64,000 nt of DNA, from the UHGV virus genome UHGV-0373904; one strand, written 5' to 3'. Below, one piece after another: positions 13,966 to 58,073 of the stretch. Made by a program: the position numbers and the translations under genes. Numbering within the stretch: the stretch's first letter is position 1; the number at the start of each line of letters is the position of its first letter. The stretch is from a virus. The notes below the pieces were generated by a model. It was not told where the DNA came from and did not search any database. It saw only the letters and a program-made list of their open reading frames with translations.

Positions 13966-14337
13966 ATGAAAAACAGAACAAACAAAGGCCAGTTTAAAAA
14001 AGGCCAGTCTGGAAACCCATCTGGAAGACCAAAAGGCTCTCGTAACAAAAGCTCACTCGTAAAAGCTCAACTGACCATTGATAATTCTGCTGAGTTTGCT
14101 GCAAAGCTGTTTGAGGCGATTGTTACAAGGGATGCTGCTAAGCTTGCAGAGTTCGGGTTAAACACAGACGATGTAACCATCAAGAGTATGATTGAGGTCG
14201 GTAAAACTATCATGACTCACTCAGCAGGTGAGATGAAAGCAATTGCAGCAGACACTAAGAAGGCTCCTGATAACGGTGGTCAGTCTCAGACAGACAACAA
14301 ACCAACGTTCTCTGCTGTTGCAACCCTTAAAAAATAA
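13966..14337 (+). CDS. Hypothetical protein (123 aa), basic Gly/Pro-rich N-terminus
   Basis: ORF; N-terminus KGQFKKGQSGNPSGRPKGSRNK. Confidence 0.5.
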   Translation: MKNRTNKGQFKKGQSGNPSGRPKGSRNKSSLVKAQLTIDNSAEFAAKLFEAIVTRDAAKLAEFGLNTDDVTIKSMIEVGKTIMTHSAGEMKAIAADTKKAPDNGGQSQTDNKPTFSAVATLKK

Positions 14338-14418: not shown

Positions 14419-15834
14419 ATGAGCGAGTTATTTAAACATGCGCACCTTCATGCAGGTCGAACTGAAAATGGTGCTGTAAACCATACTTCATCAATGTCTG
14501 CTCTTGTAGATTTTTACAAAGCTGCTGGTTCAAGCCGTAGCAATGTAGAAATCTTACCAGACTTGTTCTACAAAGCTTTGCGTGAGGATGTTGATGTTGC
14601 AGTTCGTATTTTGCTTCACATGCGAGATGTACGAGAAGGTATGGGTGAGCGTAAAGCCTTCAGAACTGTTTTACTTCAAGCAATCGAAGACAAAGTTTTA
14701 GAGCCTACACAGGTTCTTCGTATTATGGATAAGATTGCAGAACTTGGTCGTTTTGATGACTTCAAAATCTTCGTAGGTACTCGTTTTGAGACAGATGCCT
14801 TTAAGCATTTAGAAGCAGCATTACTAGACCATGAGACAGCAGGTTTAGCAGCCAAGTGGTTACCACGAGTAAAACCACGACACAAACAGTTTGTAAAACG
14901 TTTCTGCAAGTTTGCTAACTTGAGTGAGAAAGAGTACCGCACACTGCTATCTGCACTGTCTGATACGGTTGAGCAAAAAATCTCTGCTAATGAGTTTGGT
15001 AAGATTGATTACAGCAAGATTCCTTCACTTGCTGCTGCACGTTACCAAAAACTGTTTAACCGTAAAGATGGAGAGCGCTACAAAGCTTACATCGAGTCCT
15101 TATCAAAGGGTGAGACTAAGATTAATGCTGGTGCTGTTTACCCATACGATGTGATTAAATCTGTTAAGTATGGTAATGCAGATGTTGCTAATGAGCAGTG
15201 GAAAGCACTACCAAACTGGATGGCAGAGGGTGAAAACATTCTATGTATGTCTGATGTTTCAAGTTCAATGTCTTGGGTGAATTTTGGTTCAATTACTGCT
15301 CTTGATATTGGTGTTTCACTTGCATTGTATGTAGCAGAACGTAATACAGGTTGCTTTAAGAATGAGTTGATGGTTTATTCAACAAACCCTCACTTCATTG
15401 AACTGAGTGGTGATTTACGAAACCGTCATCGTCAGGTAATGCGTCATGTTGAATACGGTTCAACTAACTTACAAGCAGCTTTTGACCGCATTCTTGAGAC
15501 AGGTAAGAGAAACAACTTGACTCAGAAAGATATGCCAAGTAAGCTTATCATCTTCTCTGATATGGAGTTCAATCAGGTTGACGGTGCAAATGGTCGTACA
15601 AACTTTGAAGCAATTCGTAGTAAGTACAAAAAAGCTGGATACGAAATGCCACAACTGGTATTCTGGTACTTAGCAAACCGTAGTGGTACTTGCGAAGTAT
15701 CTGTTAAGGATAACGGTGTAGCAATGGTATCAGGGTTCTCTCCAGCCACTTTAAAAGCTCTTCTTGGTGGTGAGAAGTTTGACCCAATCAGCGTAATGCT
15801 CAAAGCAGTAATGATTGACCGTTACATCTGGTAA
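14419..15834 (+). CDS. vWA-like (MIDAS motif) domain protein, 471 aa; TROVE/Ro60-like RNA-binding protein is a hypothesis
   Basis: C-terminal half has DxSxS in ILCMSDVSSSMS followed by hydrophobic strands (LIIFSDMEF); N-terminal ~260 aa looks helical. Sits directly upstream of the tRNA array. Confidence 0.55.
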   Translation: MSELFKHAHLHAGRTENGAVNHTSSMSALVDFYKAAGSSRSNVEILPDLFYKALREDVDVAVRILLHMRDVREGMGERKAFRTVLLQAIEDKVLEPTQVLRIMDKIAELGRFDDFKIFVGTRFETDAFKHLEAALLDHETAGLAAKWLPRVKPRHKQFVKRFCKFANLSEKEYRTLLSALSDTVEQKISANEFGKIDYSKIPSLAAARYQKLFNRKDGERYKAYIESLSKGETKINAGAVYPYDVIKSVKYGNADVANEQWKALPNWMAEGENILCMSDVSSSMSWVNFGSITALDIGVSLALYVAERNTGCFKNELMVYSTNPHFIELSGDLRNRHRQVMRHVEYGSTNLQAAFDRILETGKRNNLTQKDMPSKLIIFSDMEFNQVDGANGRTNFEAIRSKYKKAGYEMPQLVFWYLANRSGTCEVSVKDNGVAMVSGFSPATLKALLGGEKFDPISVMLKAVMIDRYIW

Positions 15835-15851: not shown

Positions 15852-15880
15852 ATTGACAATGTGTTTAATACCCTTTAATA
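15852..15880 (+). promoter_or_regulatory. Sigma70-type promoter (TTGACA-N17-TAATAT) overlapping a 9-bp perfect inverted repeat
   Basis: aaaaagggtaTTGACAatgtgtttaataccctTTAATAT; inverted repeat aagggtatt / aataccctt spans -35 to the spacer. Confidence 0.65.
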
Positions 15881-15943
15881 TGTTCTACATAGAAACGAAA
15901 TGAGAGCTTTTCTAAGATACTGAAAAATATTTTAAAAAAGTTC

Positions 15944-15972
15944 TTGACAACCACTAAAAAATAATGTTAAAG
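15944..15972 (+). promoter_or_regulatory. Candidate promoter upstream of first tRNA (A-tract, TTGACA) with inverted repeat aaccact/agtggtt
   Basis: aaaaaagttcTTGACAaccactaaaaaataatgttaaagtggtt; -10 ambiguous. Confidence 0.4.
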
Positions 15973-15999
15973 TGGTTACATAGAGTTTGAAAAGTTTAT

Positions 16000-16076
16000 C
16001 TCTGTTTAGCTCAGCTTGGTAGAGCGTTCCGTTTGGGGCGGTAAGGCCGGAGGTTCAAGTCCTCCAACAGAGACCA
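16000..16076 (+). tRNA. tRNA-Pro (anticodon TGG)
   Basis: Manual fold: acceptor ctctgtt/aacagag, T-arm ggagg-ttcaagt-cctcc, anticodon loop ttTGGgg, encoded CCA. Confidence 0.75.
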
Positions 16077-16083
16077 AATTAAT

Positions 16084-16161
16084 GTTCCAGTAGACAAAAT
16101 GGTAAAGTCACCACTCTTTCAAAGTGGATATCTGAGGGTTCAAATCCCTTCTGGAACGCCA
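16084..16161 (+). tRNA. tRNA-Glu (anticodon TTC)
   Basis: Acceptor gttccag/ctggaac, anticodon stem ccact/agtgg, loop ctTTCaa, T-loop ttcaaat, CCA. Confidence 0.8.
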
Positions 16162-16162
16162 G

Positions 16163-16252
16163 TTTTGACAGAAGACCAATTACAGCAAACTTAATCTTAT
16201 TCATCTGAAGGTAAATCGGACAAAGAAGAGATTTGGTCTGGTCATTAAGAAT
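16163..16252 (+). repeat. tRNA-array spacer element copy 1 (CAGAAGACCAAT...ATTTGGTCTGG hairpin-bounded)
   Basis: 5' cagaagaccaattacagcaa and 3' tttggtctgg can pair (agaccaa/ttggtct). Confidence 0.55.
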
Positions 16253-16329
16253 TGCGGGTATAGAGAAAGGGCGTCTCACATGTCTCATTAGCATGGTATC
16301 GGCAGGTTCGACTCCTGCACCCGCCTCCA
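16253..16329 (+). tRNA. tRNA with anticodon CAT (Met or Ile2/lysidine type)
   Basis: Acceptor tgcgggt/acccgcc (1:72 mismatch), anticodon stem catgt/gcatg, loop ctCATta, T-arm gcagg-ttcgact-cctgc, CCA. Confidence 0.65.
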
Positions 16330-16330
16330 A

Positions 16331-16403
16331 TTTTGCAGAAGACCGTATTCAGCAACAAAATACTTTTGCGGATAAAAGAAAAAACACGGTCTGGCAATGT
16401 ATT
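16331..16403 (+). repeat. tRNA-array spacer element copy 2 (CAGAAGACCGT...ACGGTCTGG)
   Basis: Same flanking motif with compensatory change (agaccg/cggtct). Confidence 0.55.
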
Positions 16404-16405
16404 AA

Positions 16406-16482
16406 GGTTAGGAAGCACATAAGGTATGTGCGGTCGCCTGTTAAGCGAATGGCACAGGGTTCGAATCCCTGACTAACCGCCA
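16406..16482 (+). tRNA. tRNA-Asn (anticodon GTT)
   Basis: Acceptor ggttagg/actaacc, D-stem gcac/gtgc, anticodon loop ctGTTaa, T-arm caggg-ttcgaat-ccctg, CCA. Confidence 0.8.
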
Positions 16483-16490
16483 AATTAAAT

Positions 16491-16578
16491 GTGTCGTTAT
16501 CCCGTAGATGGTAGCGGTGGGGACTGTAAATCCCTTGTCATTGAGACTCGGTAGGTTCGACTCCTACACGGCACACCA
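16491..16578 (+). tRNA. tRNA-Tyr (anticodon GTA), long variable arm
   Basis: Acceptor gtgtcgt/acggcac, anticodon stem gggga/tccct, loop ctGTAaa, 15-nt variable arm, T-arm gtagg-ttcgact-cctac, CCA. Confidence 0.8.
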
Positions 16579-16583
16579 ATAAA

Positions 16584-16660
16584 GGCTATGTAGTTTAACT
16601 GGAGAAAATACTCCCCTGTCACGGGAGATGATGTGAGTTCAAGTCTCATCGTAGCCGCCA
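16584..16660 (+). tRNA. tRNA-Asp (anticodon GTC)
   Basis: Acceptor ggctatg/cgtagcc, anticodon stem ctccc/gggag, loop ctGTCac, CCA. Confidence 0.8.
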
Positions 16661-16720
16661 ATTTTGAGAGGGCTATTTAGCCCCTCCCTTAAAGGGTTCT
16701 TACGAGTATCCTTTAAAGGA

Positions 16721-16800
16721 GCAGAAGACCAAATACAGCAAGAACGTATGAAAATTTCAAGCCAATTTAATTTTGAAAAATTTAAAACTTGGTCTGGCTC
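16721..16800 (+). repeat. tRNA-array spacer element copy 3 (CAGAAGACCAAATACAGCAA...TTGGTCTGG)
   Basis: Same motif; preceded by terminator-like hairpin agggc-tattta-gccct and a TTAAAGG..CCTTTAA palindrome (16661-16716). Confidence 0.55.
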
Positions 16801-16940
16801 AACAAATTTACAGAAGACCGTTTACAGCAAAACTTAAACAATCTATTTCTCGGTAAAGAAAAGGCGAAGGTTCGATTCCTTCACTCGGCAGATGTCGAGT
16901 TGGTGTAATGGTAGCACTTAAGATGATAAACAACGGTCTG
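16801..16940 (+). repeat. tRNA-array spacer element copy 4 (CAGAAGACCGTTTACAGCAA...AACGGTCTGG) enclosing tRNA-like fragments
   Basis: 8-bp closing stem agaccgtt/aacggtct; the interior holds a T-arm plus 3' acceptor-like segment next to a 5' acceptor plus D-arm-like segment. Confidence 0.55.
16863..16920 (+). pseudogene. tRNA-like fragments (T-arm gaagg-ttcgatt-ccttc plus actcggc, then gtcgagt plus D-arm-like tggtgtaatggtagcac)
   Basis: A canonical T-arm with 3' acceptor-like strand is followed 4 nt later by a complementary 5' acceptor-like strand and a D-arm; no complete cloverleaf could be folded in normal order. Confidence 0.4.
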
Positions 16941-17090
16941 GTAATTATCTTTGTAGATAAGTTATTAAGCTTACCTGTGAGTATGCGACCACAAAGGGTG
17001 AAAGGGTAAATTCTAGATTTAAACCCAAAAAGGCACATCGCTACAGACCTTAAGCAAGTCTGGGTAGCTTATCTGCAAAGATAATTTAAT

Positions 17091-17166
17091 GGAAGTGTAG
17101 CAGAATGGTGATGCGGCAGACTTTTAATCTGACAGGCGATGGGTTCGAATCCCTCCACTTCTACCA
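17091..17166 (+). tRNA. tRNA-Lys (anticodon TTT)
   Basis: Acceptor ggaagtg/cacttct, anticodon stem gcaga/tctga (one mismatch), loop ctTTTaa, T-loop ttcgaat, CCA. Confidence 0.7.
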
Positions 17167-17244
17167 AATTCACCCTTAACTGAGAAACACCTGCGCGGCT
17201 GGAAACACCCACTCAACAGTTTCTCTAACTAGGGTACTTATTCT

Positions 17245-17321
17245 GGTTCAGTCGCAGATAAGGTAATGCAGGGGTTTCATAAGCCCTATGAATGTGGGTT
17301 CGATTCCCATCTGAACCTCCA
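17245..17321 (+). tRNA. tRNA-Met (anticodon CAT); GGG/CCC in the anticodon stem is initiator-like
   Basis: Acceptor ggttcag/ctgaacc, anticodon stem ggggt/gccct, loop ttCATaa, T-arm gtggg-ttcgatt-cccat, CCA. Confidence 0.75.
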
Positions 17322-17322
17322 A

Positions 17323-17398
17323 GCTGGTATAGTTAAGAAGGTTATAACACTCCCCTGATAAGGGAACATCGGTGGTTCGATTCCACCTACCAGCACCA
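17323..17398 (+). tRNA. tRNA-Ile (anticodon GAT)
   Basis: Acceptor gctggta/taccagc, anticodon loop ctGATaa, T-arm ggtgg-ttcgatt-ccacc, CCA. Confidence 0.75.
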
Positions 17399-17413
17399 AT
17401 TTCAATAAAGTTG

Positions 17414-17442
17414 TTGACATTGAGATGTGACTACTTTATAGT
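17414..17442 (+). promoter_or_regulatory. Sigma70-type promoter inside the tRNA array (TTGACA-N17-TATAGT)
   Basis: aaagttgTTGACAttgagatgtgactacttTATAGT. Confidence 0.65.
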
Positions 17443-17445
17443 AAC

Positions 17446-17733
17446 TAAAACACTTCATAATATGTATAATTCAAACACCAATACATGAGCGTTAGACGTA
17501 ACACAATGTGGGGAAATTTGTTGTACATATTCTGAATAGTTTTCGTTGCGTAGCGTCTATTTTGAAAATTTAAAATAAATGCAAACGACAATGTTTTTCT
17601 GGCAGTAGCTTGATAGGCTAAACACCAGTGAGGTCTTCCAATCCCTCATCAAAGAATTTGGCGTACTCGCCCACGGTATGATTAATAAGGTGGGCATCTT
17701 TAAGGGCTTTCTAAGAGAGTCTTTAAAGATAAT
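17446..17733 (+). other. ORF-poor 290-nt segment downstream of a promoter inside the tRNA array; candidate non-coding RNA locus
   Basis: No tRNA fold found, no ORF of 60 aa or more; lies between promoter 17414-17442 and tRNA-Arg. Confidence 0.35.
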
Positions 17734-17810
17734 GCACCCTTAGTTCAATTGGATAGAGCAACGGTCTTCTAAATCGTTAGTTACAGGTTCGAATCCTGTA
17801 GGGTGTACCA
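17734..17810 (+). tRNA. tRNA-Arg (anticodon TCT)
   Basis: Acceptor gcaccct/agggtgt, D-arm gttcaattggatagagc, anticodon stem acggt/atcgt, loop ctTCTaa, T-arm acagg-ttcgaat-cctgt, CCA. Confidence 0.8.
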
Positions 17811-17952
17811 AATAGTTAGCAGATTACTTAGACGGCCTTAGCGGGTCTTCCTGTAGGGAGGTGGTCTGTATCTCATGTTTTCCAGAACATGTAAATAATC
17901 TGAGAAGAGGCTTGACAGTGTTGAGATAACAGGGTAAGCTTCGAATTATAAT

Positions 17953-18035
17953 ATGGGACGATGTTAAGACTCTAAGGCATGAGCAACGGCCTCCAAAACC
18001 GTTTCAAAGGGGTTCAACTCCTCCGTCCCATGCCA
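17953..18035 (+). tRNA. Non-canonical tRNA-like gene (possible anticodon CCA, Trp) with expanded D region and enlarged anticodon loop
   Basis: Perfect 7-bp acceptor atgggac/gtcccat plus GCCA end and T-arm agggg-ttcaact-cctcc; anticodon stem aacgg/ccgtt encloses a 9-nt loop cctccaaaa; D region is about 6 nt too long to fold canonically. Confidence 0.4.
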
Positions 18036-18048
18036 AAGTCTTATTAGG

Positions 18049-18136
18049 GGTAGGTAGCGGCTAATGGTAGCCAAACTGTCTTGAAAACAGTTGCCACTGT
18101 AGAGATACGGTGAGGGTTCGACTCCTTTACTTACCG
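18049..18136 (+). tRNA. tRNA-Ser (anticodon TGA), class II with long variable arm
   Basis: Acceptor ggtaggt/acttacc, anticodon stem actgt/acagt, loop ctTGAaa, ~20-nt variable arm, T-loop ttcgact; CCA not encoded. Confidence 0.75.
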
Positions 18137-18289
18137 CCTAATAAGATTTACTCCGTCCATGCTTGTTCGCATTGTCGGTTTATCCCTCGTGTATTGTCGT
18201 ACACTGTCAAAGCACCTAGTAGGTGTCACGGAGAAGAGATAATATCAAGCTCTCCAAAGGTTCTAGTCACCGGATTAAACAAGACTATG

Positions 18290-18312
18290 CAAAGACCTAT
18301 TTAGGTCTTTTT
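18290..18312 (+). terminator. Rho-independent terminator inside the tRNA array
   Basis: agaccta-ttt-aggtct perfect hairpin followed by ttttt. Confidence 0.6.
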
Positions 18313-18391
18313 AGAGGGCTTCTAAGGTTATTACAGCTTGTTGTGGAACCTTGTTGCTTAGGTTCTTAGAAGTTCTCTAAAAAGATTTAAT

Positions 18392-18468
18392 GCACCTATA
18401 GCCCAACTGGTAGAGGCAGCAGACTTAGAATCTGCTCAGTGTGAGTTCGAATCTCTCTAGGTGTACCA
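18392..18468 (+). tRNA. tRNA with anticodon TAG (Leu by code) but short variable region
   Basis: Acceptor gcaccta/taggtgt (close paralog of tRNA-Arg TCT), anticodon stem gcaga/tctgc, loop ctTAGaa, 5-nt variable region, T-loop ttcgaat, CCA. Confidence 0.6.
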
Positions 18469-18475
18469 AATTAAT

Positions 18476-18551
18476 GCAGGTGTAGCAAAATGGTTATGCG
18501 GCTGACTCTTAATCAGTAAGACGATGGGTTCAATTCCCTCCACCTGTACCA
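18476..18551 (+). tRNA. tRNA-Lys (anticodon CTT)
   Basis: Acceptor gcaggtg/cacctgt, anticodon stem gctga/tcagt, loop ctCTTaa, T-loop ttcaatt, CCA; paralog of tRNA-Lys TTT. Confidence 0.65.
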
Positions 18552-18557
18552 AACATT

Positions 18558-18633
18558 GGGGTCATAGTTTATATGGTTAAAATTCGAGTTTTGCAAACTT
18601 GGGAACTGAGTTCAATTCTCAGTGACTCCACCA
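18558..18633 (+). tRNA. tRNA-Ala (anticodon TGC)
   Basis: Acceptor ggggtca/tgactcc (G3-U70), anticodon stem cgagt/acttg, loop ttTGCaa, T-arm ctgag-ttcaatt-ctcag, CCA. Confidence 0.75.
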
Positions 18634-18639
18634 ATTAGT

Positions 18640-18714
18640 GCATCCATAGTTTAAACGGGAAAATTACAGTCTTCCAAACTGAGGTTGAGGGTTCGATTCC
18701 CTCTGGATGCTCCA
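18640..18714 (+). tRNA. tRNA-Gly (anticodon TCC)
   Basis: Acceptor gcatcca/tggatgc, anticodon loop ctTCCaa, T-arm gaggg-ttcgatt-ccctc, CCA. Confidence 0.7.
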
Positions 18715-18721
18715 AATTAAT

Positions 18722-18797
18722 GCTCCTATCGTATAATTGGCTATTACGGTTGCCTTGTAAGCAACTTATCAGGGTTCGAATCCTTGTGGGAGCACCA
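18722..18797 (+). tRNA. tRNA-Thr (anticodon TGT)
   Basis: Acceptor gctccta/tgggagc, anticodon stem gttgc/gcaac, loop ctTGTaa, T-arm caggg-ttcgaat-ccttg, CCA. Confidence 0.8.
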
Positions 18798-18887
18798 ATT
18801 CAGAGGTCAAGTGAAAGACCGCTTTGAGTCAACTGAAGACCGTAACAAATTCCACGGAGTTGAGTTAGCGGCACAACTCCAGACCTC
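18793..18887 (+). repeat. Structured spacer (agaggtc ... gacctct outer stem, inner hairpin ggagttg..caactcc, GAAGACCG motif)
   Basis: Nested inverted repeats; contains ctgaagaccgtaacaaa related to the CAGAAGACC spacer family. Confidence 0.45.
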
Positions 18888-18893
18888 TTTCAT

Positions 18894-18968
18894 ACTCGCT
18901 TAGTTTATATGGTAAAACATCACCCTTACAAGATGAAGAAAAAGGTTCAAGTCCTTTAGTGAGTACCA
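18894..18968 (+). tRNA. tRNA-Val (anticodon TAC)
   Basis: Acceptor actcgct/agtgagt, D-stem gttt/aaac, anticodon loop ctTACaa, T-arm aaagg-ttcaagt-ccttt, CCA. Confidence 0.7.
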
Positions 18969-18969
18969 T

Positions 18970-19047
18970 GTTCCAGTATCCCAATTGGCAGAGGATGCAA
19001 GCTCAAACCTTGTACTAGTGACGGTTCGAATCCGTCTTGGAACACCA
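18970..19047 (+). tRNA. tRNA with anticodon CAA (Leu by code) but short variable region
   Basis: Acceptor gttccag/ttggaac, anticodon stem gcaag/cttgt, loop ctCAAac, 6-nt variable region, T-arm gacgg-ttcgaat-ccgtc, CCA. Confidence 0.65.
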
Positions 19048-19052
19048 ATTTT

Positions 19053-19128
19053 GCAGGATTAGTTCAAATGGATAGAGCAACAGTCTACGAAGCTGTTAGT
19101 AGGGGTTCGAATCCCTTATCCTGCGCCA
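19053..19128 (+). tRNA. tRNA-Arg (anticodon ACG)
   Basis: Acceptor gcaggat/atcctgc, anticodon stem acagt/gctgt, loop ctACGaa, T-loop ttcgaat, CCA. Confidence 0.75.
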
Positions 19129-19146
19129 GATAAGCAAGAGGAATTT

Positions 19147-19389
19147 ATGCAAACATTAATCGTCGTTGAACATGAAAATCCCAATAGTATTGAGTTTGTA
19201 AGGGTTCCCACTATAGATACTCACATTTTCTTGAAAGTCGGATGGGAATGCGACCCGATAAAAGTAGGAAAATTTCTTGGTCATTACTTTGGTGGAAGAC
19301 AATTTAAAAGTATCAATTTTGAGACAGTATTACCAGAAAACTCAGAAACAGACAATAATACTTACCTCCTTACGAGGATTAGACAATGA
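19147..19389 (+). CDS. Hypothetical protein (80 aa) embedded in the tRNA array
   Basis: ORF with upstream aagaggaa RBS-like sequence. Confidence 0.4.
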   Translation: MQTLIVVEHENPNSIEFVRVPTIDTHIFLKVGWECDPIKVGKFLGHYFGGRQFKSINFETVLPENSETDNNTYLLTRIRQ

Positions 19390-19943
19390 GATACTTAAAA
19401 TATGTTTCATGGATTTTCTTAGCTTTGTTAGAACCATTTGCAGCAACCCTAGCAGTCATCTTAGCACCTTTCGTAGTTCCATTCTACAGTGAGAAGAAAG
19501 GGCATCTACCTTTTGGATTCAGATGGACGGAGACCTATGACAACCCTATTGATGGTGACAAAGGCCACGTTGAGAGATGGGCTAAGATTAGAAAGATTGG
19601 TAAGCTTGGTGTCTACATGCAGAGAGTTGGATGGCTCTGGAGAAACAAAGCTTATAACTTCTCTTACCATGTATTAGGAAGAGATGTAAAAGACGTTACT
19701 AAGTGGAAAGGTAATATCAACGTAAGTTCTAACCCTGAAGATAATCAAACAGGTTATCTCCTAATGTGGAACAGTAATGCTTGGGGATTATTCGCTTTTA
19801 TCCCATCAATTAAAATCTTTGGTAAACAGTTTTACTGGAGAATTTATATTGGATGGAAACTTAAAAGTGTTGTCCCAGAAGAAAGAGCATTCTCAAGGGA
19901 AAGAGTTATGTTGGCATTCTTTATTCATCCACTGAGAAAGTAA
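19386..19943 (+). CDS. Hypothetical membrane protein (185 aa) embedded in the tRNA array
   Basis: N-terminal hydrophobic segment WIFLALLEPFAATLAVILAPFVVPF; 4-nt overlap with the upstream ORF. Confidence 0.45.
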   Translation: MRYLKYVSWIFLALLEPFAATLAVILAPFVVPFYSEKKGHLPFGFRWTETYDNPIDGDKGHVERWAKIRKIGKLGVYMQRVGWLWRNKAYNFSYHVLGRDVKDVTKWKGNINVSSNPEDNQTGYLLMWNSNAWGLFAFIPSIKIFGKQFYWRIYIGWKLKSVVPEERAFSRERVMLAFFIHPLRK

Positions 19944-19951
19944 AGATTTAA

Positions 19952-20027
19952 AGGGGATTAGTTTACAAGGTTAAAACCTCGGTCTTTGAAATCGAAGAAG
20001 TTGGTTCAATTCCAACATCCCCCGCCA
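19952..20027 (+). tRNA. tRNA-Gln (anticodon TTG)
   Basis: Acceptor aggggat/atccccc (1:72 mismatch), D-stem gttt/aaac, anticodon stem tcggt/atcga, loop ctTTGaa, T-arm gttgg-ttcaatt-ccaac, CCA. Confidence 0.7.
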
Positions 20028-20029
20028 AT

Positions 20030-20108
20030 GCTCCATTACTCCAATTGGCAGAGAGGCCAGACTTAAAATCTGTGTTATGTATCGGTTCGAATCCGATATG
20101 GAGTACCA
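20030..20108 (+). tRNA. tRNA with anticodon TAA (Leu by code) but short variable region
   Basis: Acceptor gctccat/atggagt, anticodon loop ctTAAaa, 7-nt variable region, T-arm atcgg-ttcgaat-ccgat, CCA; paralog of the CAA tRNA at 18970. Confidence 0.65.
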
Positions 20109-20113
20109 AATTT

Positions 20114-20189
20114 AGCGGTATAGCATAACTGGCAATGCAACAGTCTCTGAAGCTGTCCTATTAAGGTTCAAATCCTTATGCCGCTGCCA
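20114..20189 (+). tRNA. tRNA-Gln (anticodon CTG)
   Basis: Acceptor agcggta/tgccgct, D-stem gcat/atgc, anticodon stem acagt/gctgt, loop ctCTGaa, T-arm taagg-ttcaaat-cctta, CCA. Confidence 0.7.
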
Positions 20190-20220
20190 CTTCTAAGGAT
20201 TCTTACGAGAGTCCTTAAAT

Positions 20221-20296
20221 GTGGCCTTATCATAAAAGGTAATGACCCATGCTGTGAACATGGTCTATACGGGTTCAAATCCCGTAGGTCACCCCA
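20221..20296 (+). tRNA. tRNA-His (anticodon GTG)
   Basis: Acceptor gtggcct/aggtcac, D-stem tcat/atga, anticodon stem ccatg/catgg, loop ctGTGaa, T-arm acggg-ttcaaat-cccgt, CCA; no encoded G-1. Confidence 0.75.
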
Positions 20297-20301
20297 ATTT
20301 A

Positions 20302-20378
20302 TAGTCCAAGTAGCTTATATGGTTAAAGCGCGTGTCTGAAAAACATGAGAAGAGGGTTCAAATCCCACTGGACTACCA
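20302..20378 (+). tRNA. tRNA-Phe (anticodon GAA)
   Basis: Acceptor tagtcca/tggacta, anticodon stem cgtgt/acatg, loop ctGAAaa, T-loop ttcaaat. Confidence 0.7.
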
Positions 20379-20394
20379 ATTTCAAAGGTGCTTA

Positions 20395-21129
20395 ATGAAA
20401 GAGATGACAGAACAAGGTAAGGAGATTTTTAATCTCTTAAAAACTGGTAAAGGGTTTTCTAACCCCCTTATTACTGGTGCAGCAGTTCTCGGTGGAACCG
20501 TAGCTGCCTCTACATCACTTGTAAGCTCTATTAGCTCTGTATCAGACCCTACAGTAAAGGATAAGCTTGTTGCTGCTGGACTTACAACAGTTCTGCTTAA
20601 CAGCTTTACCACGAGTCTGACAAGCACTACATCAACTACCAAAACACTAACAGATTACGGTCAAAAGTCCATTGATGAGTTTTCATCACGTATGCAGGTA
20701 GCAAAAGGTTACTCTAATGTTATGGGTGCAGCAGGTGAACAAGTTGGCTGTACACCGTTTAGTGGTATTATGGGCGTTGCTACAGAATATGGTCAAAAAG
20801 CTATTGACACAATTAACAGTGCACTAGATGTCGTTAATGATGTATTAAGTGACTTACAAGATGCTATTGACAAAGGTCTTGATACTATTTCTGATTTAGC
20901 TAACCAAGCTGTTAGTAAGATTAATGAAGGTATTTCGAAGATTACAGCTTATGCAGATGAAGTTGTGCAGATGATTGAAGAAGAAGCTGCTCTTATTGCA
21001 GAGTACCTTAAAACGAATATCAATGGGTTCTTAGCAGGTATCTTACCAGACTGGTTTGATGATGCTTGTAAAACTGGTGTGATTGACACTATTGCAACAC
21101 CAGAAATGAAGAACGCATTACAGAAATAA
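20395..21129 (+). CDS. Hypothetical Ser/Thr-rich protein
   Basis: ORF track start 20332 lies inside tRNA-Phe; the ATG at 20395 is preceded by aaagg. Ser/Thr-rich low-complexity N-terminal region. Confidence 0.5.
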   Translation: MKEMTEQGKEIFNLLKTGKGFSNPLITGAAVLGGTVAASTSLVSSISSVSDPTVKDKLVAAGLTTVLLNSFTTSLTSTTSTTKTLTDYGQKSIDEFSSRMQVAKGYSNVMGAAGEQVGCTPFSGIMGVATEYGQKAIDTINSALDVVNDVLSDLQDAIDKGLDTISDLANQAVSKINEGISKITAYADEVVQMIEEEAALIAEYLKTNINGFLAGILPDWFDDACKTGVIDTIATPEMKNALQK

Positions 21130-21130
21130 T

Positions 21131-21223
21131 GGAAGATTAACCCTAAAAGGTAAGGGAGCAGTTTGCTAAACTGCCAGTAGCTGAGAAATCGGTGTACCAG
21201 TTCAAGTCTGGTATCTTCCTCCA
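21131..21223 (+). tRNA. tRNA-Ser (anticodon GCT), class II
   Basis: Acceptor ggaagat/atcttcc, anticodon stem gcagt/actgc, loop ttGCTaa, 21-nt variable arm, T-arm accag-ttcaagt-ctggt, CCA. Confidence 0.8.
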
Positions 21224-21227
21224 ATTT

Positions 21228-21303
21228 GAATCCGTGACAGAAATGGCTATGTGCCTGTCTGCAAAACAGGTTTATAAGGGTTCGAGTCCCTTCGGATTCT
21301 CCA
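21228..21303 (+). tRNA. tRNA-Cys (anticodon GCA)
   Basis: Acceptor gaatccg/cggattc, anticodon stem cctgt/acagg, loop ctGCAaa, T-arm aaggg-ttcgagt-ccctt, CCA. Confidence 0.8.
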
Positions 21304-48940: not shown

Positions 48941-49015
48941 TCCTTCCAAACTATACCAAACCTAACCCCACCTAACCCCACCTAACCCTACCACACCAGA
49001 CCTAGCCTAACCTTG
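48941..49015. repeat. CA-rich, G-depleted low-complexity tract (CCTAACC / ACCAGACC-type heptamers)
   Basis: cctaaccccacctaaccccacctaaccctaccacaccagacctagcctaacc; almost no G on the + strand. Confidence 0.7.
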
Positions 49016-49048
49016 TTAAAAGACCCTCTTAAAGACCTTTTAAAAAGG
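49016..49048. repeat. Conserved 33-bp intergenic core, copy 1 (TTAAAAGACCCTCTTAAAGACCTTTTAAAAAGG)
   Basis: Identical 33-mer at 49148-49180 and 50427-50459; degenerate copy at 50590-50617. Confidence 0.75.
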
Positions 49049-49085
49049 TAAGTCTCATTTTAATGTAGCTGAGACTAACTACCCA
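49049..49085 (-). terminator. Hairpin agtctca..tgagact with T-run on the - strand
   Basis: On the - strand: agtctcagctacattaaaatgagact followed by tacctttttaaaa; repeated at 50460-50495. Confidence 0.5.
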
Positions 49086-49147
49086 TACCAGACCCTACCT
49101 TACCAAACCAGACCTCACTCTACCCCACCATACCGTATACTACCTCA
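49081..49147. repeat. CA-rich, G-depleted tract
   Basis: acccataccagaccctaccttaccaaaccagacctcactctaccccaccatacc. Confidence 0.65.
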
Positions 49148-49180
49148 TTAAAAGACCCTCTTAAAGACCTTTTAAAAAGG
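49148..49180. repeat. Conserved 33-bp intergenic core, copy 2
   Basis: Identical to 49016-49048. Confidence 0.75.
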
Positions 49181-49200
49181 AGCCTCCGAAGAGGCTACCT
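49181..49200 (-). terminator. Rho-independent terminator (- strand) after ORF 49208..49648
   Basis: On the - strand: agcctc-ttcg-gaggct (UUCG-type tetraloop) followed by cttttt. Confidence 0.6.
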
Positions 49201-49207
49201 AGTCAAC

Positions 49208-49648
49208 TTAGAAAGGTTTTCTGCGTTGCTTGTTAATGTTAGCTTTCATAGCAGCTAAGTGGTTTTGCTGTTCAATTAGTCGTGAACGTTCTTGGTGGCT
49301 AAGTGCCATAGTGTTCACATTCTCAATTGCTTGAGTAGCTTGCTTTAAAGCACGACCAATTTTACCAGACATTTTACGTTTTGCAATAGTTGCTTGATGC
49401 TTAGGTTCAACCACACGATAACCAACACCCATTGAAGCAACCAGATAAATCTTCTCTTCTTTAAGAAGCTTCTCAATAAACTTCTCAAGTCGGTTTAGAC
49501 GTGTAAGCGCATAAGCCTTCATTTCATCTTCGTACTTAACAATGTCACCTTGATAAGTTGGCTTCACAATACCTAAGAAGGTGTCCATCTCAGAGTGTGA
49601 TACAGTGTCACCGTAACTAAACTTTGCTGCTAATGCTTTTGTATTCAT
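49208..49648 (-). CDS. Hypothetical protein (146 aa)
   Basis: ORF; basic C-terminus. Confidence 0.5.
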   Translation of the reverse strand: MNTKALAAKFSYGDTVSHSEMDTFLGIVKPTYQGDIVKYEDEMKAYALTRLNRLEKFIEKLLKEEKIYLVASMGVGYRVVEPKHQATIAKRKMSGKIGRALKQATQAIENVNTMALSHQERSRLIEQQNHLAAMKANINKQRRKPF

Positions 49649-49650
49649 AA

Positions 49651-50256
<606 letters not shown>

Positions 50257-50330
50257 TTAGTTGATTGTTAAGTTGTTTGTAAAGAACCCTCAACAGAAGA
50301 CTCTTTAGAAACTTGGTAGATTTTTAACGT

Positions 50331-50426
50331 GGCTACTACCATCCACCCATACCATACCGAACCTTACCTTACCAAACCAGACCGCGCCTTACCAAACCAG
50401 ACCAAACATTACTTTACCCTACCTTA
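50331..50426. repeat. CA-rich, G-depleted tract
   Basis: ccacccataccataccgaaccttaccttaccaaaccagaccgcgccttaccaaaccagacc. Confidence 0.65.
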
Positions 50427-50459
50427 TTAAAAGACCCTCTTAAAGACCTTTTAAAAAGG
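50427..50459. repeat. Conserved 33-bp intergenic core, copy 3
   Basis: Identical to 49016-49048, followed by the same 37-bp hairpin unit. Confidence 0.75.
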
Positions 50460-50495
50460 TAAGTCTCATTTTAATGTAGCTGAGACTAACTACCC
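50460..50495 (-). terminator. Hairpin agtctca..tgagact with T-run on the - strand (second copy)
   Basis: Same unit as 49049-49085, downstream of the ligase gene. Confidence 0.5.
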
Positions 50496-50589
50496 GCACT
50501 TTACCGCACCGGACCTTACCGGACCGCACATCACCGCACTAAACCAGACATCACATTACCTGACCACACCAAACCAAACATCACATTAC
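50491..50589. repeat. CA-rich tract with ACCGCAC / CATCACATTAC words
   Basis: cgcactttaccgcaccggaccttaccggaccgcacatcaccgcactaaaccagacatcacattacctgaccacaccaaaccaaacatcacattac. Confidence 0.6.
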
Positions 50590-50835
50590 TTAAAAACCCT
50601 CTTAGAAGACTCTTAAGTGATGTTGGTGAGTACCCGTTGGTTTATGCTGCTCAGTATACTCACCAAATTTTCTATGTCAACAACTTTATATAAAAGTCCT
50701 GATAACTATATGCGTTACAAAACAGAAGATTGTGAACAAGACACCCATTGCAAAGGATGTGTTCAAAAGCTTACTTGTGATGTAAGACAACACAAAGATA
50801 ACTAATGCAAACAGAATGATTGTACTTAACATAGT

Positions 50836-57272: not shown

Positions 57273-58073
57273 ATGAATATCGATGTAGAAAAGATGCTTG
57301 AAGAGAAAGGTGTTGATGAAGCATTCTTAATCAATGCCGTAGAAAGCATGGCTATGATTCTTCGTGGTAATAACTACACAGAACAGTTTATGCCTGCAAG
57401 CTATAACTTGCCTGAAGACAAGTCTGATAACGGTGCTTTTGCAGAACAGGTTAATATGATGTTGACAGACACTACACTTGCTCTGGCATCTATTGCGGTT
57501 GGTGTTGATGCACTTGCTGAGTTCATTTTTTATGAAATGCAAAAGAATGACTATATCAGGATGTCAGACGAAGATAAGGAACTGTTGCTGACTAAGGACA
57601 CAGATTTCATTATTGATACGCTTATCTCATCAACGAGTGCTGTTATGGCTGCTCTTGAGAAGCGAATGGAAGAGAAGCTGTCACGATATGAAAAGCTTGA
57701 TTGGGGTGTAGAGGAATTAAACCCACGAATCAAAGAGATTATCCAGCAAACCAAAGATTCTTTGGAAGAAGCTGTAAAAAATGATTCTGTAGCTGACATA
57801 GAACCACTTCAGGTGAAAGTTGCATTGATGATTCCAGCCATCTCTACGATGATGAATATCGTTGCACTAATCCAGCTTTCACAGATGATGGGCACAAGCA
57901 TTGAGTTCATTGAGAGTATGACTGGTGGTGTTAGTATGCAAGCAATCAATGATGTTCTGGTGAGCATTGGTGCTTCAATCATTGAAGAGAAGCTTCGCAT
58001 TAACTTTGGTGATGATTTTGTGAAGCAAATCTCAGCTATGGCTGAAAAAGAGTCTGCTGAGCAACTGCACTAA
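57273..58073 (+). CDS. Hypothetical protein (266 aa)
   Basis: ORF, coupled to the upstream ORF. Confidence 0.5.
   Translation: MNIDVEKMLEEKGVDEAFLINAVESMAMILRGNNYTEQFMPASYNLPEDKSDNGAFAEQVNMMLTDTTLALASIAVGVDALAEFIFYEMQKNDYIRMSDEDKELLLTKDTDFIIDTLISSTSAVMAALEKRMEEKLSRYEKLDWGVEELNPRIKEIIQQTKDSLEEAVKNDSVADIEPLQVKVALMIPAISTMMNIVALIQLSQMMGTSIEFIESMTGGVSMQAINDVLVSIGASIIEEKLRINFGDDFVKQISAMAEKESAEQLH

Follow-up and report, generated by a model that had tools for sequence, protein, structure and literature searches.

Ro60-Y RNA particles are found in animals, in some bacteria and in a few phages. Metazoan Y RNAs have separate genes and are RNA polymerase III transcripts; in these RNAs, as in Yrn1 of Deinococcus radiodurans (which also has a T-arm), a terminal helix with a bulge or internal loop is the Ro60 site, and a variable loop is the effector. 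Phage tRNA arrays are thought to counter tRNA-targeting defences, and the tRNA cluster of phage T4 also yields stable non-tRNA small RNAs (species 1 and 2, or RNA C and D) that are co-transcribed and excised; we know of no Ro60-like partner for them. YrlA and YrlB, from Salmonella, Mycobacterium smegmatis and 22 TROVE-encoding phages, are bound by Rsr (Ro60) (Chen et al. 2014, PMC4201824). The Ro60 of Thermus phage phiLo has been demonstrated to bind Yrl1 and Yrl2 (PMC12135203; PDB 9KOP, 9L5Y), and the proposed role of the complex is to hijack host RNA enzymes against defence. Gp130 of Escherichia phage JohannRWettstein (Bas63) is described as Ro60-like and counters the Ppl defence system (PhageMaP preprint, 10.1101/2024.10.10.617714); Y RNAs for gp130 are only guessed at in the preprint, which names no RNA.

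The window analysed here is a stretch of 64,000 nucleotides of virus genome UHGV-0373904, a Felix-O1-type phage. A preliminary description had singled out four hairpin-bounded spacers in its tRNA array and had offered three roles for them: processing signals of the tRNA precursor, small RNAs, or remnants of a mobile element. The four spacers are indeed there, all on the plus strand. The pattern GAAGACC-N(30-60)-GGTCTGG has 3 matches in the window against 0 expected (100 shuffles), copy 4 having a longer interior than this spacing permits; AGAAGACC occurs once per element, at 16170, 16337, 16723 and 16812; and repeat detection puts all four 5' modules in one family (D13) and three of the 3' modules in another (D20). 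The elements and their parts are as follows.

16166-16244, plus strand: element 1, proposed short Y-like RNA, in the spacer between tRNA-Glu and tRNA-Met
16166-16169/16241-16244 and 16173-16179/16233-16239, plus strand: outer and inner helices of element 1
16170-16172 and 16240, plus strand: AGA and G of the internal loop of element 1
16183-16188, plus strand: CAGCAA of element 1
16204-16220, plus strand: internal hairpin of element 1 (5 bp, 7-nt loop)
16333-16397, plus strand: element 2, proposed short Y-like RNA, in the spacer between tRNA-Met and tRNA-Asn
16333-16336/16394-16397 and 16340-16346/16386-16392, plus strand: outer and inner helices of element 2
16350-16355, plus strand: CAGCAA of element 2
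16719-16800, plus strand: element 3, proposed short Y-like RNA
16719-16722/16797-16800 and 16726-16732/16789-16795, plus strand: outer and inner helices of element 3
16736-16741, plus strand: CAGCAA of element 3
16808-16944, plus strand: element 4, putative YrlA-like tRNA mimic
16808-16811/16941-16944 and 16815-16821/16933-16939, plus strand: outer and inner helices of element 4

The four elements share a common plan: the outer helix has 4 bp and the inner helix 7 bp (AGACCNN/NNGGUCU), an internal loop, AGA/G, separates the two, and the 5' strand of the inner helix is followed by single-stranded YWWCAGCAA (the 5' strands read CAGAAGACC, then YWWCAGCAA). The proposed closing stem is part of the minimum-free-energy fold of every copy (4/4). 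Folding also brings out the outer helix, which does not figure in the preliminary description: UGAC/GUCA, UUGC/GCAA, GAGC/GCUC and UUAC/GUAA in the four copies. The interiors are AU-rich, which keeps the single-sequence folding z-scores modest (-1.1 to -2.1). Against covariance model R1, elements 1, 2 and 3 score 51.3 (E 2e-9), 47.4 and 38.8 bits, respectively. Each element lies 3-8 nt from the adjoining tRNA or element; most tRNA junctions of the same array (5-8 nt spacers) have no such element. Of 26 tRNAs called by ARAGORN and the Rfam tRNA model, 0 overlap the elements, and no Rfam family besides tRNA was returned when the array was scanned at E<=1 and element 4 by itself at E<=10; as to curated Rfam membership, there is no match near a gathering score, and only the annotated tRNAs are recognized.

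The apparent covariation of the closing stems, which the preliminary description had taken to imply selection on pairing rather than chance similarity, is borne out among relatives. Across 13 Felixouna- and Mooglevirus genomes, 52 copies give 14 distinct termini, and in these 92% of the cells in the closing helices are paired, as against 21-45% with slid partners. The outer helix is 100% paired, and three of its four pairs differ on both sides between copies; in the inner helix, two pairs show such double changes and another three vary by G-U wobble. Element 2, for example, has outer-helix alleles UUGC/GCAA and UUAC/GUAA in relatives, a compensatory change. The wobble substitutions (AGGCC, AGACU, GAG/UUC) retain pairing only in plus-strand RNA: read on the opposite strand, they are A-C mismatches. 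The same spacers between the same tRNAs are occupied throughout the Felixouna- and Mooglevirus genomes. Elements 1-4 are conserved structured RNAs under selection on pairing. Among Felix-like genomes, element 1 has a hypervariable 7-nt loop, anticodon-like and fast-evolving, and without U33. In Salmonella virus VSe102, elements 2 and 3 are gone together with three tRNAs, and elements 1 and 4 are retained.

Element 4 alone contains a tRNA-like domain (YUAY, V, T, AS, D), comprising these parts.

16822-16830, plus strand: UUAC-AGCAA (UUAC at 16822-16825)
16846-16861, plus strand: V hairpin
16866-16882, plus strand: T-arm
16883-16900, plus strand: closed acceptor-like (AS) hairpin
16903-16917, plus strand: D-arm

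The hairpin order V, T, AS, D is that of a permuted tRNA, not a truncated one. The T-arm matches positions 43-63 of the Rfam tRNA model as a fragment hit of 14.9 bits; neither ARAGORN nor the tRNA model calls a tRNA gene in element 4. All 27 of its 27 pairs are 100% paired in eight distinct orthologs, and three pairs of the AS helix are changed on both sides, giving the compensatory variants ACUCG/CGAGU, ACACG/CGUGU and ACCCUUC/GAAGGGU. The sequence GGCGAAGG, whose sole occurrence is in the T-stem of element 4, is unconserved (FO1a has GGAGAGGG). The preliminary description missed this permuted domain, as it did the gene that lies directly upstream of the elements, on the same strand.

14419-15834, plus strand: Ro60-like gene; the 471-aa product has a ring of helical repeats and a C-terminal vWA domain whose MIDAS motif is DxSxS

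The elements begin about 332-974 nt downstream of this ORF. Its product matches Pfam DUF2828 and DUF7788, with no Pfam TROVE match, and phrog_850 ('RNA-binding protein'); a phmmer search against PDB sequences found nothing relevant, and identity to solved Ro60 structures is only 11-17%. The AF2 model (pLDDT 87, pTM 0.87) tells more: the top 11 Foldseek matches in the PDB are all Ro60/TROVE chains, full length, at E 3e-8 to 1e-6 and TM 0.47-0.67. The model aligns over 515-552 columns with Ro60 structures 9KOP, 9L5Y, 2NVO, 1YVR, 2I91 and 9NFA, its best match being the Ro60 of phage phiLo. D279, S281, S283, T349 and D381 are invariant in 35 homologs. Membership of the protein in the Ro60 family thus rests on predicted fold, not on sequence. 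Full-length comparison gives 31-34% identity to mycobacteriophage proteins that carry the annotation 'Ro-like RNA binding protein', and the protein is the ortholog of Bas63 gp130. Homologs are present in 710 phage records, and metagenomic homologs number in the thousands.

How closely does this locus resemble those already described? As with YrlA and YrlB (PMC4201824), the RNA genes share a strand with a Ro60-type gene and lie no more than a few kb from it (about 4 kb); in all four copies the 5' and 3' ends pair in a helix interrupted by a bulge or internal loop, and a YUAY-type motif follows the 5' strand. Element 4 has the V, T, closed acceptor-like and D hairpins of YrlA in the same order, and is accompanied by shorter RNAs that lack the tRNA-like domain (elements 1-3, compare YrlB). 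The differences are as plain: the Ro-binding motif proposed for YrlA and the phiLo Yrl RNAs, GNCGAAN0-1G or CGAA, is absent and an AG...CUG-closed helix with CAGCAA stands in its place; the partner is a DUF2828/DUF7788 protein (phrog_850) rather than a Pfam TROVE protein; and the RNAs, in four copies, are embedded in a tRNA array instead of standing alone. With phiLo the locus shares a phage-encoded Ro60-fold protein and small Y-like RNAs adjoining its gene (two in phiLo). The phiLo RNAs, however, lie upstream of the gene and are picked by CGAA in a large internal bulge, neither a tRNA-like domain nor a tRNA array is reported for that phage, and binding, demonstrated there, is inferred here. 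The terminal helix with its internal loop and the variable interior also recall metazoan Y RNAs and Yrn1 (the latter in its T-arm as well, as regards element 4), from which the elements differ in having no sequence similarity, in a GGUC/GACC helix of opposite polarity relative to the loop and, in the metazoan case, in their array setting. Relative to the Bas63 preprint, the candidates proposed here are four unannotated spacers and not annotated tRNAs.

We consider it likely that elements 1-4 are Y-RNA-type small RNAs and that they bind, as partners, the Ro60-like protein encoded at 14419-15834. RNAs and protein together most likely constitute a new variant of the Ro60/Y-RNA system in which the one would be held by the other. 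Among the roles offered initially, that of small RNAs comes closest; those of processing signal and mobile-element remnant are not supported.

The linkage of gene and RNA extends well beyond the Felix-like phages. In 77 DUF2828 loci (1.0 Mb) whose homologs are 34-54% identical, a strict "AG-stem-CAGCAA...stem-CUG" signature is found 66 times on the strand of the gene and a single time on the opposite strand; a control motif yields 1 and 0. Of the 64 elements outside the gene, 39 are no more than 1 kb away from it, and most copies are within 400 nt, also in phages that have no tRNAs nearby. Stem covariation at these loci would be circular evidence, because the signature is partly defined by pairing; the strand and position statistics are not circular. 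Covariance model R1, which also matches the copies in the window, gives 50 hits at E<=0.01 in distant loci, 50:0 on the gene strand, and 28 of these are outside its training set. In Mycobacterium phage Archie, three elements of the same design directly follow the Ro-like gene at a locus without tRNAs, and the middle one has T, AS and D arms, as do long elements in loci L016, L035, L040, L064 and L013. What the distant loci have in common is CAGCAA together with the AG...CUG-closed helix; a search of them for the exact Felix motif (AGAAGACC...GGTCTG, one mismatch per part) gave nothing convincing.

The reverse test, in which viral loci of IMG/VR were searched with a 22-base composite pattern, returned 43 loci, all with 7-9-bp stems. 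The gene is within the stored stretch in 17 of them; 16 of these have a BLAST-level match, and in 15 of the 16 the strands agree. Of the other 26 loci, 24 are in arrays of 1-23 tRNAs (most with at least 6), and many members of the family either belong to tRNA arrays with the gene several kb away or come from stored stretches that do not include it. A 14-base pattern, AAGGATNNNWTACAGCAA, was too unspecific: its 120 IMG/VR loci, none with the gene, are mostly chance matches with neither the CCUG tail nor the closing stem. Linkage of the upstream DUF5681 gene (13966-14337) is confined to Felix-like phages, and this gene falls outside the general module. Pairing of a Ro60-type protein with Y-like RNAs most likely recurs in many unrelated phages.

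A route from gene to particle can be proposed. Two promoter-like sequences lie between the Ro60-like gene and the elements.

15853-15881, plus strand: sigma-70-like promoter (consensus match only, 10/12)
15944-15973, plus strand: sigma-70-like promoter (consensus match only, 10/12)

The next strong promoter is at 17414-17442, and no plus-strand terminator-like site was found in 16000-17400 or before that promoter; the elements themselves are not intrinsic terminators of the usual form, a GC-rich hairpin with a U-tract behind it. Transcripts from ~15853 and ~15944 would carry the elements within a polycistronic tRNA precursor (the first array block). The elements lie within 3-8 nt of their neighbours, and therefore ordinary tRNA 5' and 3' end processing should release them, as RNAs of 65-137 nt with their ends locked in the terminal helix. 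The shared module (outer helix, AGA/G loop, AGACC helix and single-stranded YWWCAGCAA) would be the protein-binding site, corresponding to the bulged helix through which Y RNAs are held by Ro60, and the variable interiors would be effector modules: in element 4 the permuted tRNA-like body, as in YrlA, and in elements 1-3 small hairpins, as in YrlB. The ribonucleoprotein would probably recruit or block host RNA-handling or defence factors.

A more ambitious version, which we regard as a rather improbable guess in its full extent, is that DUF2828 (phrog_850) proteins and CAGCAA-type RNAs form a widespread, undescribed phage ribonucleoprotein system of tRNA arrays, in which the constant module docks on the protein and exchangeable loops mimic parts of host tRNAs (the body of element 4, tRNA-Lys(UUU) stem-loops, the element 1 loop), serving tRNA-targeting defence nucleases or sensors as decoys or as baits that cannot be cleaved. 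Such decoys would account for the anti-defence score of the protein in Bas63. Mimicry could also dispense with the protein: the elements might be small RNAs of the tRNA array that act alone, for example as mimics of tRNAs or anticodon stem-loops that titrate host nucleases directed at tRNA, or host tRNA-modifying enzymes; they would then be near DUF2828 only because this gene, too, tends to reside beside tRNA arrays. Three distant elements with the exact E. coli tRNA-Lys(UUU) anticodon stem-loop are in keeping with this, as are the hypervariable loop of element 1 and the tRNA-array setting of the pattern loci whose stored stretch lacks the gene; a tRNA starts within 1 kb downstream of the gene in 16 of 49 homolog loci scanned. 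We nevertheless think it unlikely. Among 17 viral loci where tRNA genes are absent to a distance of about 7 kb, at least 11 have an element flanking DUF2828, and in Archie, too, the elements adjoin the gene where there are no tRNAs; no fewer than four of the 'no gene' loci belong to contigs in which the gene is a few kb away; and an invariant module fits one common partner better than it fits varied targets.

Partnership with the Ro60-like protein is also to be preferred over the two other roles suggested at the outset. That the elements are cis-acting processing or spacing signals of the tRNA precursor (for endonuclease entry, for instance), without function once excised, would account for their filling tRNA spacers to within a few nucleotides of the tRNA termini, and for the use of identical spacers across the subfamily; it is very unlikely, since the same design flanks DUF2828 genes where there are no tRNAs, most junctions of the same array manage without an element, a cleavage signal needs no tRNA-like domain kept by compensatory change, and VSe102 dropped elements 2 and 3 with three tRNAs and yet kept 1 and 4. 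DNA-level repeats, whether mobile-element remnants or recombination or protein-binding sites spread through the array, are harder still to credit. Their best credentials are two identical 26-nt 5' modules, one in element 4 and one in the Bas63 allele of element 2, which are joined exactly by the ~475-bp deletion in VSe102, and the entry of homing-endonuclease genes into the array in relatives; against them stand the confinement to one strand (66:1 and 50:0), compensatory change with wobbles that the other strand could not pair, positions fixed between the same tRNAs in 13 genomes, the absence of target-site duplications and of terminal inverted repeats beyond the helix itself, and the conserved RNA motifs (T-arm, D-arm) of the interiors. 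A reading of element 4 and the adjoining sequence as a tRNA pseudogene in decay, or as coding sequence for a small protein (ORF 16808-17038, minus strand, 76 aa), can barely be entertained: the T-arm does score as a tRNA fragment, the minus-strand ORF is present and short minus-strand CDSs are annotated here in the Bas63 and VSe102 records, but the arms T, AS and D are permuted rather than truncated with all helices paired across genera, a 1-nt indel (CUCGGU here, CUCCGGU in Bas63) would shift the frame, and ARAGORN and the Rfam tRNA model give no tRNA.

Elements 1-4 provide concrete candidate partner RNAs for a Ro60-like protein with an anti-defence phenotype in a model phage, Bas63, and a protein family is seen to travel with a recognisable RNA family that is missing from Rfam. 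Such RNAs are overlooked in genome annotation or overwritten by spurious ORFs; in the Bas63 record, two of the four spacers are overlaid by minus-strand 'hypothetical protein' CDSs. The link now made between Y-like RNAs and phage tRNA arrays opens a route for testing Y RNA tRNA mimicry in phage-host conflict.

Two further places in the window had been tied to the family. The nested hairpin reported near 18793-18887 exists, as a stable and conserved hairpin with GAAGACCG at 18798-18893 (z = -3.8), but with no compensatory change, CAGCAA or R1 hit it is not a member. CCAGACC words do recur in the CA-rich tracts of 48941-50589 (at 48996-49114 and 50377-50403); they lie in opposite orientation inside ACC-rich runs, and the tracts, without CAGCAA or an R1 hit, are not members either. 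R1 hits at 57730-57792 (in ORF 57273-58073) and 14998-15057 (in the Ro-like ORF) are weak and coding. The 'tRNA-OTHER' annotations of relatives, considered as possible elements, are tRNA-Glu and tRNA-Tyr.

This region of the window has matches, 83-99% identical, in 260 phage records from Felixounavirus and its relatives (the Felix-O1 group). ARAGORN places 26 tRNA genes on the + strand at 16000-21303, and four hairpin-bounded elements fill spacers early in this array, all of which motif search and folding find as the preliminary description had stated. The pattern GAAGACC-N(30-60)-GGTCTGG occurs three times in the window and not once in 100 shuffles; copy 4, with its longer interior, falls outside it.

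16166-16244, + strand: element 1, including outer helix UGAC/GUCA
16333-16397, + strand: element 2, including outer helix UUGC/GCAA
16719-16800, + strand: element 3, including outer helix GAGC/GCUC
16808-16944, + strand: element 4, including outer helix UUAC/GUAA

Elements 1 and 2 start 3-4 nt 3' of the preceding tRNA, and end 8 nt 5' of the next one; 7 nt separate elements 3 and 4. When each spacer is folded alone, the closing stem originally proposed is part of the minimum-energy structure, together with an outer helix of 4 bp whose sequence is different in each of the four copies; between it and the inner AGACC helix lies an asymmetric internal loop (5' AGA, 3' G). The covariation claimed for the closing stem is borne out on 14 distinct termini, where the two-helix structure is 92% paired, as against 21-45% with slid partners. 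Pairing in the outer helix is complete (100%), and three of its four pairs carry changes on both sides; the inner helix has two such pairs, plus three others that vary through G-U wobble. Read on the opposite strand, these wobble variants become A-C mismatches; the structure is therefore maintained at the level of + strand RNA rather than duplex DNA. Element 2 has two alleles, with outer helices UUGC/GCAA and UUAC/GUAA. The same spacers hold all four elements in 13 Felixounavirus and Mooglevirus genomes, and also in a Suspvirus. What is shared and invariant is a module of two helices, the AGA/G loop and single-stranded CAGCAA.

The proposed protein partner of these elements is encoded by ORF 14419-15834 (+), which ends 332 nt from the start of element 1 and carries Pfam domains DUF2828 and DUF7788 and the PHROGs annotation 'RNA-binding protein'. 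For the AlphaFold model of its product (pLDDT 87, pTM 0.87; 35 homologs), each of the 11 best PDB matches is a Ro60/TROVE protein with a full-length alignment (E 3e-8 to 1e-6), among them Thermus phage phiLo Ro60, Deinococcus Rsr, and Xenopus and human Ro60; the matches ranked below these 11 are to vWA domains only. The MIDAS residues of the protein's vWA domain are invariant. The ORF is the ortholog of gp130 of Bas63 (Escherichia phage JohannRWettstein), described in a PhageMaP preprint (10.1101/2024.10.10.617714) as Ro60-like and as countering the Ppl defence system; the preprint speculates that some downstream 'tRNA genes' may be Y RNAs, naming none. Mycobacteriophage homologs (31-34% identity) are annotated 'Ro-like RNA binding protein'. 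A DUF5681 gene (13966-14337, +) lies immediately 5' of the Ro60-like gene, a position kept in Felix-like phages, Yersinia phage P778 and viral contig L013, whereas more distant loci lack this arrangement.

Mycobacterium phage Archie has three elements directly 3' of its Ro-like gene, each fitting GUGGAC(NN)-YUA(A)CAGCAA ... (N'N')GUCCAG; T-arm, closed hairpin and D-arm are all present in the middle one. The Felix-specific AGACC is accordingly not part of the common signature, which consists of a closing helix with CAGCAA after it. Pairing was one basis on which the distant elements were chosen, and independent support comes from strand, position and motif statistics only: in 77 distant loci (1.0 Mb; homologs at 34-54% identity), a strict signature (a closing helix of 6 bp or more whose 5' strand opens with AG, CAGCAA no more than 6 nt further on, and a 3' strand that ends in CU and is followed by G) has 66 copies on the gene's strand and one on the opposite strand (control motif, 1 versus 0), and 39 of the 64 elements outside the gene are within 1 kb of it, many at 25-400 nt. 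R1, a covariance model trained on 26 short elements, scores elements 1-3 of the window at 39-51 bits and matches element 4 partly; its two other matches in the window, weak (14-20 bits) and inside ORFs, were rejected. Applied to the 77 loci, R1 yields 50 matches (E<=0.01), none of them on the strand opposite the gene; 28 were absent from model building. T-arm, closed hairpin and D-arm recur in long elements of several distant loci.

A reverse search with a 22-base composite pattern found 43 viral loci, all with 7-9-bp helices (5 bp had been specified). Counted within the stored stretch, a contig fragment, and not the whole contig, the gene is present in 17 of the 43; a BLAST-level match was obtained in 16 of these, and in 15 of the 16 gene and element share a strand. 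Of the 26 remaining loci, 24 are tRNA arrays, and at least four come from contigs known to have the gene a few kb away. The main alternative, that the elements have a role in tRNA arrays independent of any protein, we regard as improbable. The proposal that they are processing signals for the tRNA precursor is contradicted, since an element lies beside the gene in at least 11 of 17 loci whose flanks have no tRNA gene; a role limited to such processing is thereby ruled out. Also contradicted is an origin as mobile-element remnants, by the extreme (66:1) strand bias and by fixed positions, the same spacers being occupied in relatives.

Among IMG/VR viral loci with homologs of the gene (L013-L087), many unrelated phages have a tRNA array directly 3' of the DUF2828 Ro60-like gene on the same strand; a tRNA lies within 1 kb downstream in 16 of 49 loci scanned, and tmRNA genes lie within 7 kb in several (L033, L038, L051, L055, L071, L078). 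Elements of ~100 nt upstream of the gene in L014, L015, L019, L022 and L045 share an internal hairpin, CUUUC-UGGAGGG-GAAAG. In L069 (6734-6834) the arms inside the family closing module follow the normal tRNA order (D-arm, anticodon-like arm with CUUGUAA, T-arm), a layout nearer to that of Deinococcus Yrn1 than to YrlA.

Element 4 is a permuted tRNA mimic, with four interior hairpins.

16846-16861, + strand: small V hairpin
16866-16882, + strand: canonical T-arm GAAGG-UUCGAUU-CCUUC, matching Rfam tRNA model positions 43-63
16883-16900, + strand: closed hairpin
16903-16917, + strand: D-arm GUGU-AAUGGUA-GCAC

YrlA, a tRNA-mimicking bacterial Y RNA, has a YUAY motif followed by V, T, acceptor-like stem-loop and D (Chen et al. 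2014, PMC4201824); the hairpin order of element 4 after its own YUAY motif, UUAC, is identical. All 27 pairs of element 4 are intact in eight distinct orthologs, and in the closed hairpin three pairs differ at both positions (Felix types have ACUCG/CGAGU, Sf14 and Sf19 have ACACG/CGUGU, and Michonne and Mijalis have ACCCUUC/GAAGGGU). A tRNA pseudogene is contradicted by arms that are permuted yet fully paired. A 76-aa ORF (16808-17038, -) overlaps element 4 and the hairpin after it, and short hypothetical proteins are annotated there in Bas63 (bas63_0137, bas63_0138) and Salmonella virus VSe102 (vse102_041); a minus-strand gene is contradicted by a 1-nt indel between the window and Bas63 that shifts the frame, and these CDSs are probably artefacts of ORF calling across structured RNA genes. 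In VSe102 (L090 2840-2980) the 5' module of element 2 is joined to the body of element 4: recombination between the two elements' identical 26-nt 5' modules has deleted ~475 bp (element 2 body, tRNA-Asn, tRNA-Tyr, tRNA-Asp and element 3). The repeated modules are substrates for recombination that remodels the tRNA array, a side effect at the DNA level.

We infer the transcription, release, binding and downstream function of the elements from evidence that is comparative and structural throughout. They are probably co-transcribed with tRNA-Pro to tRNA-Ile, because two predicted sigma-70-like promoters (15853-15881 and 15944-15973) precede the array and no terminator-like site was found on the + strand before the next strong promoter at 17414. 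Maturation of the tRNAs at their 5' and 3' ends would release the elements as well, and the terminal helix would protect the element ends. The invariant module is a natural candidate for the protein-binding site and would correspond to the bulged helix that Ro60 grips in Y RNAs, with the variable interiors as putative effector modules. The system would work like Ro60 with YrlA/YrlB (Chen et al. 2014, PMC4201824) and phiLo Ro60 with Yrl1/Yrl2 (PMC12135203), although the GNCGAAN0-1G (CGAA) motif of YrlA-type RNAs is absent from the window's elements. The product of ORF 14419-15834 has no match to the Ro60 family in Pfam (TROVE) or in a PDB sequence search; the survey of Chen et al. was limited to genomes annotated with a TROVE protein, so that DUF2828 phages fell outside it. 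Our literature search found no paper tying DUF2828, Felixounavirus or Bas63 to specific Y RNAs, and an Rfam scan of the array and element 4 found no family matching the elements. On these grounds the RNAs and protein probably constitute a variant of the Ro60/Y-RNA kind not yet described in the literature searched.

Element 1 has an internal hairpin (16204-16220) whose 5-bp stem, UCUGA/UCGGA, is invariant and whose 7-nt loop is hypervariable among 38 Felix-like genomes, the flanks barely differing: AGGUAAA (12), CACGAAA (11), AAGUUAA (2), CAGUUAA, AGAUAAA and AGCUAAA, with GCGCAUA in Moogle types. The form NN-NNN-AA resembles an anticodon loop lacking U33. Short elements of three distant viral contigs (L013 10795-10862, L036 6797-6863, L064 6750-6821) share UUGACUUUUAAUCAA, which is exactly the anticodon stem-loop of E. 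coli tRNA-Lys(UUU), found in 5426 of 5426 E. coli genomes; the anticodon stems of the phages' own tRNA-Lys(UUU) genes differ from it. L016 (5726-5787) has a GCA-type loop (CUGCAAA), and both may mimic host anticodon arms.

Between element 4 and tRNA-Lys, a ~145-nt segment (16943-17086, +; z = -5.1) with a ~22-bp closing helix contains CUACAGACC...GUCUGGGUAG and is conserved in Mooglevirus, where six pairs carry changes at both positions and the interior has diverged; it has no R1 match and is a separate candidate structured RNA. The nested hairpin that the preliminary description had related to the elements (18793-18887) does exist as a stable 96-nt structure (18798-18893, +; z = -3.8) between tRNA-Thr and tRNA-Val; it contains no CAGCAA, and is near-identical across Felixouna- and Mooglevirus, hence without covariation. 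The CA-rich modules at 48941-50589, in which CCAGACC-type words had been noted, are unrelated to the Y-like elements: they are intergenic C/A-rich quasi-repetitive tracts (48941-49190 and 50330-50600; ACC-rich on the + strand) flanking minus-strand ORFs, each followed by a near-identical block, UUAAAAGACCCUCUUAAAGACCUUUUAAAAAGG. Long non-tRNA spacers in the array (17399-17733, 17811-18048, 18139-18391), which include the strong promoter (17414-17442), a weak tRNA-like match (17955-18029, 23 bits) and a 26-nt inverted repeat (18301-18390), may hold further small RNAs or degenerate tRNAs.
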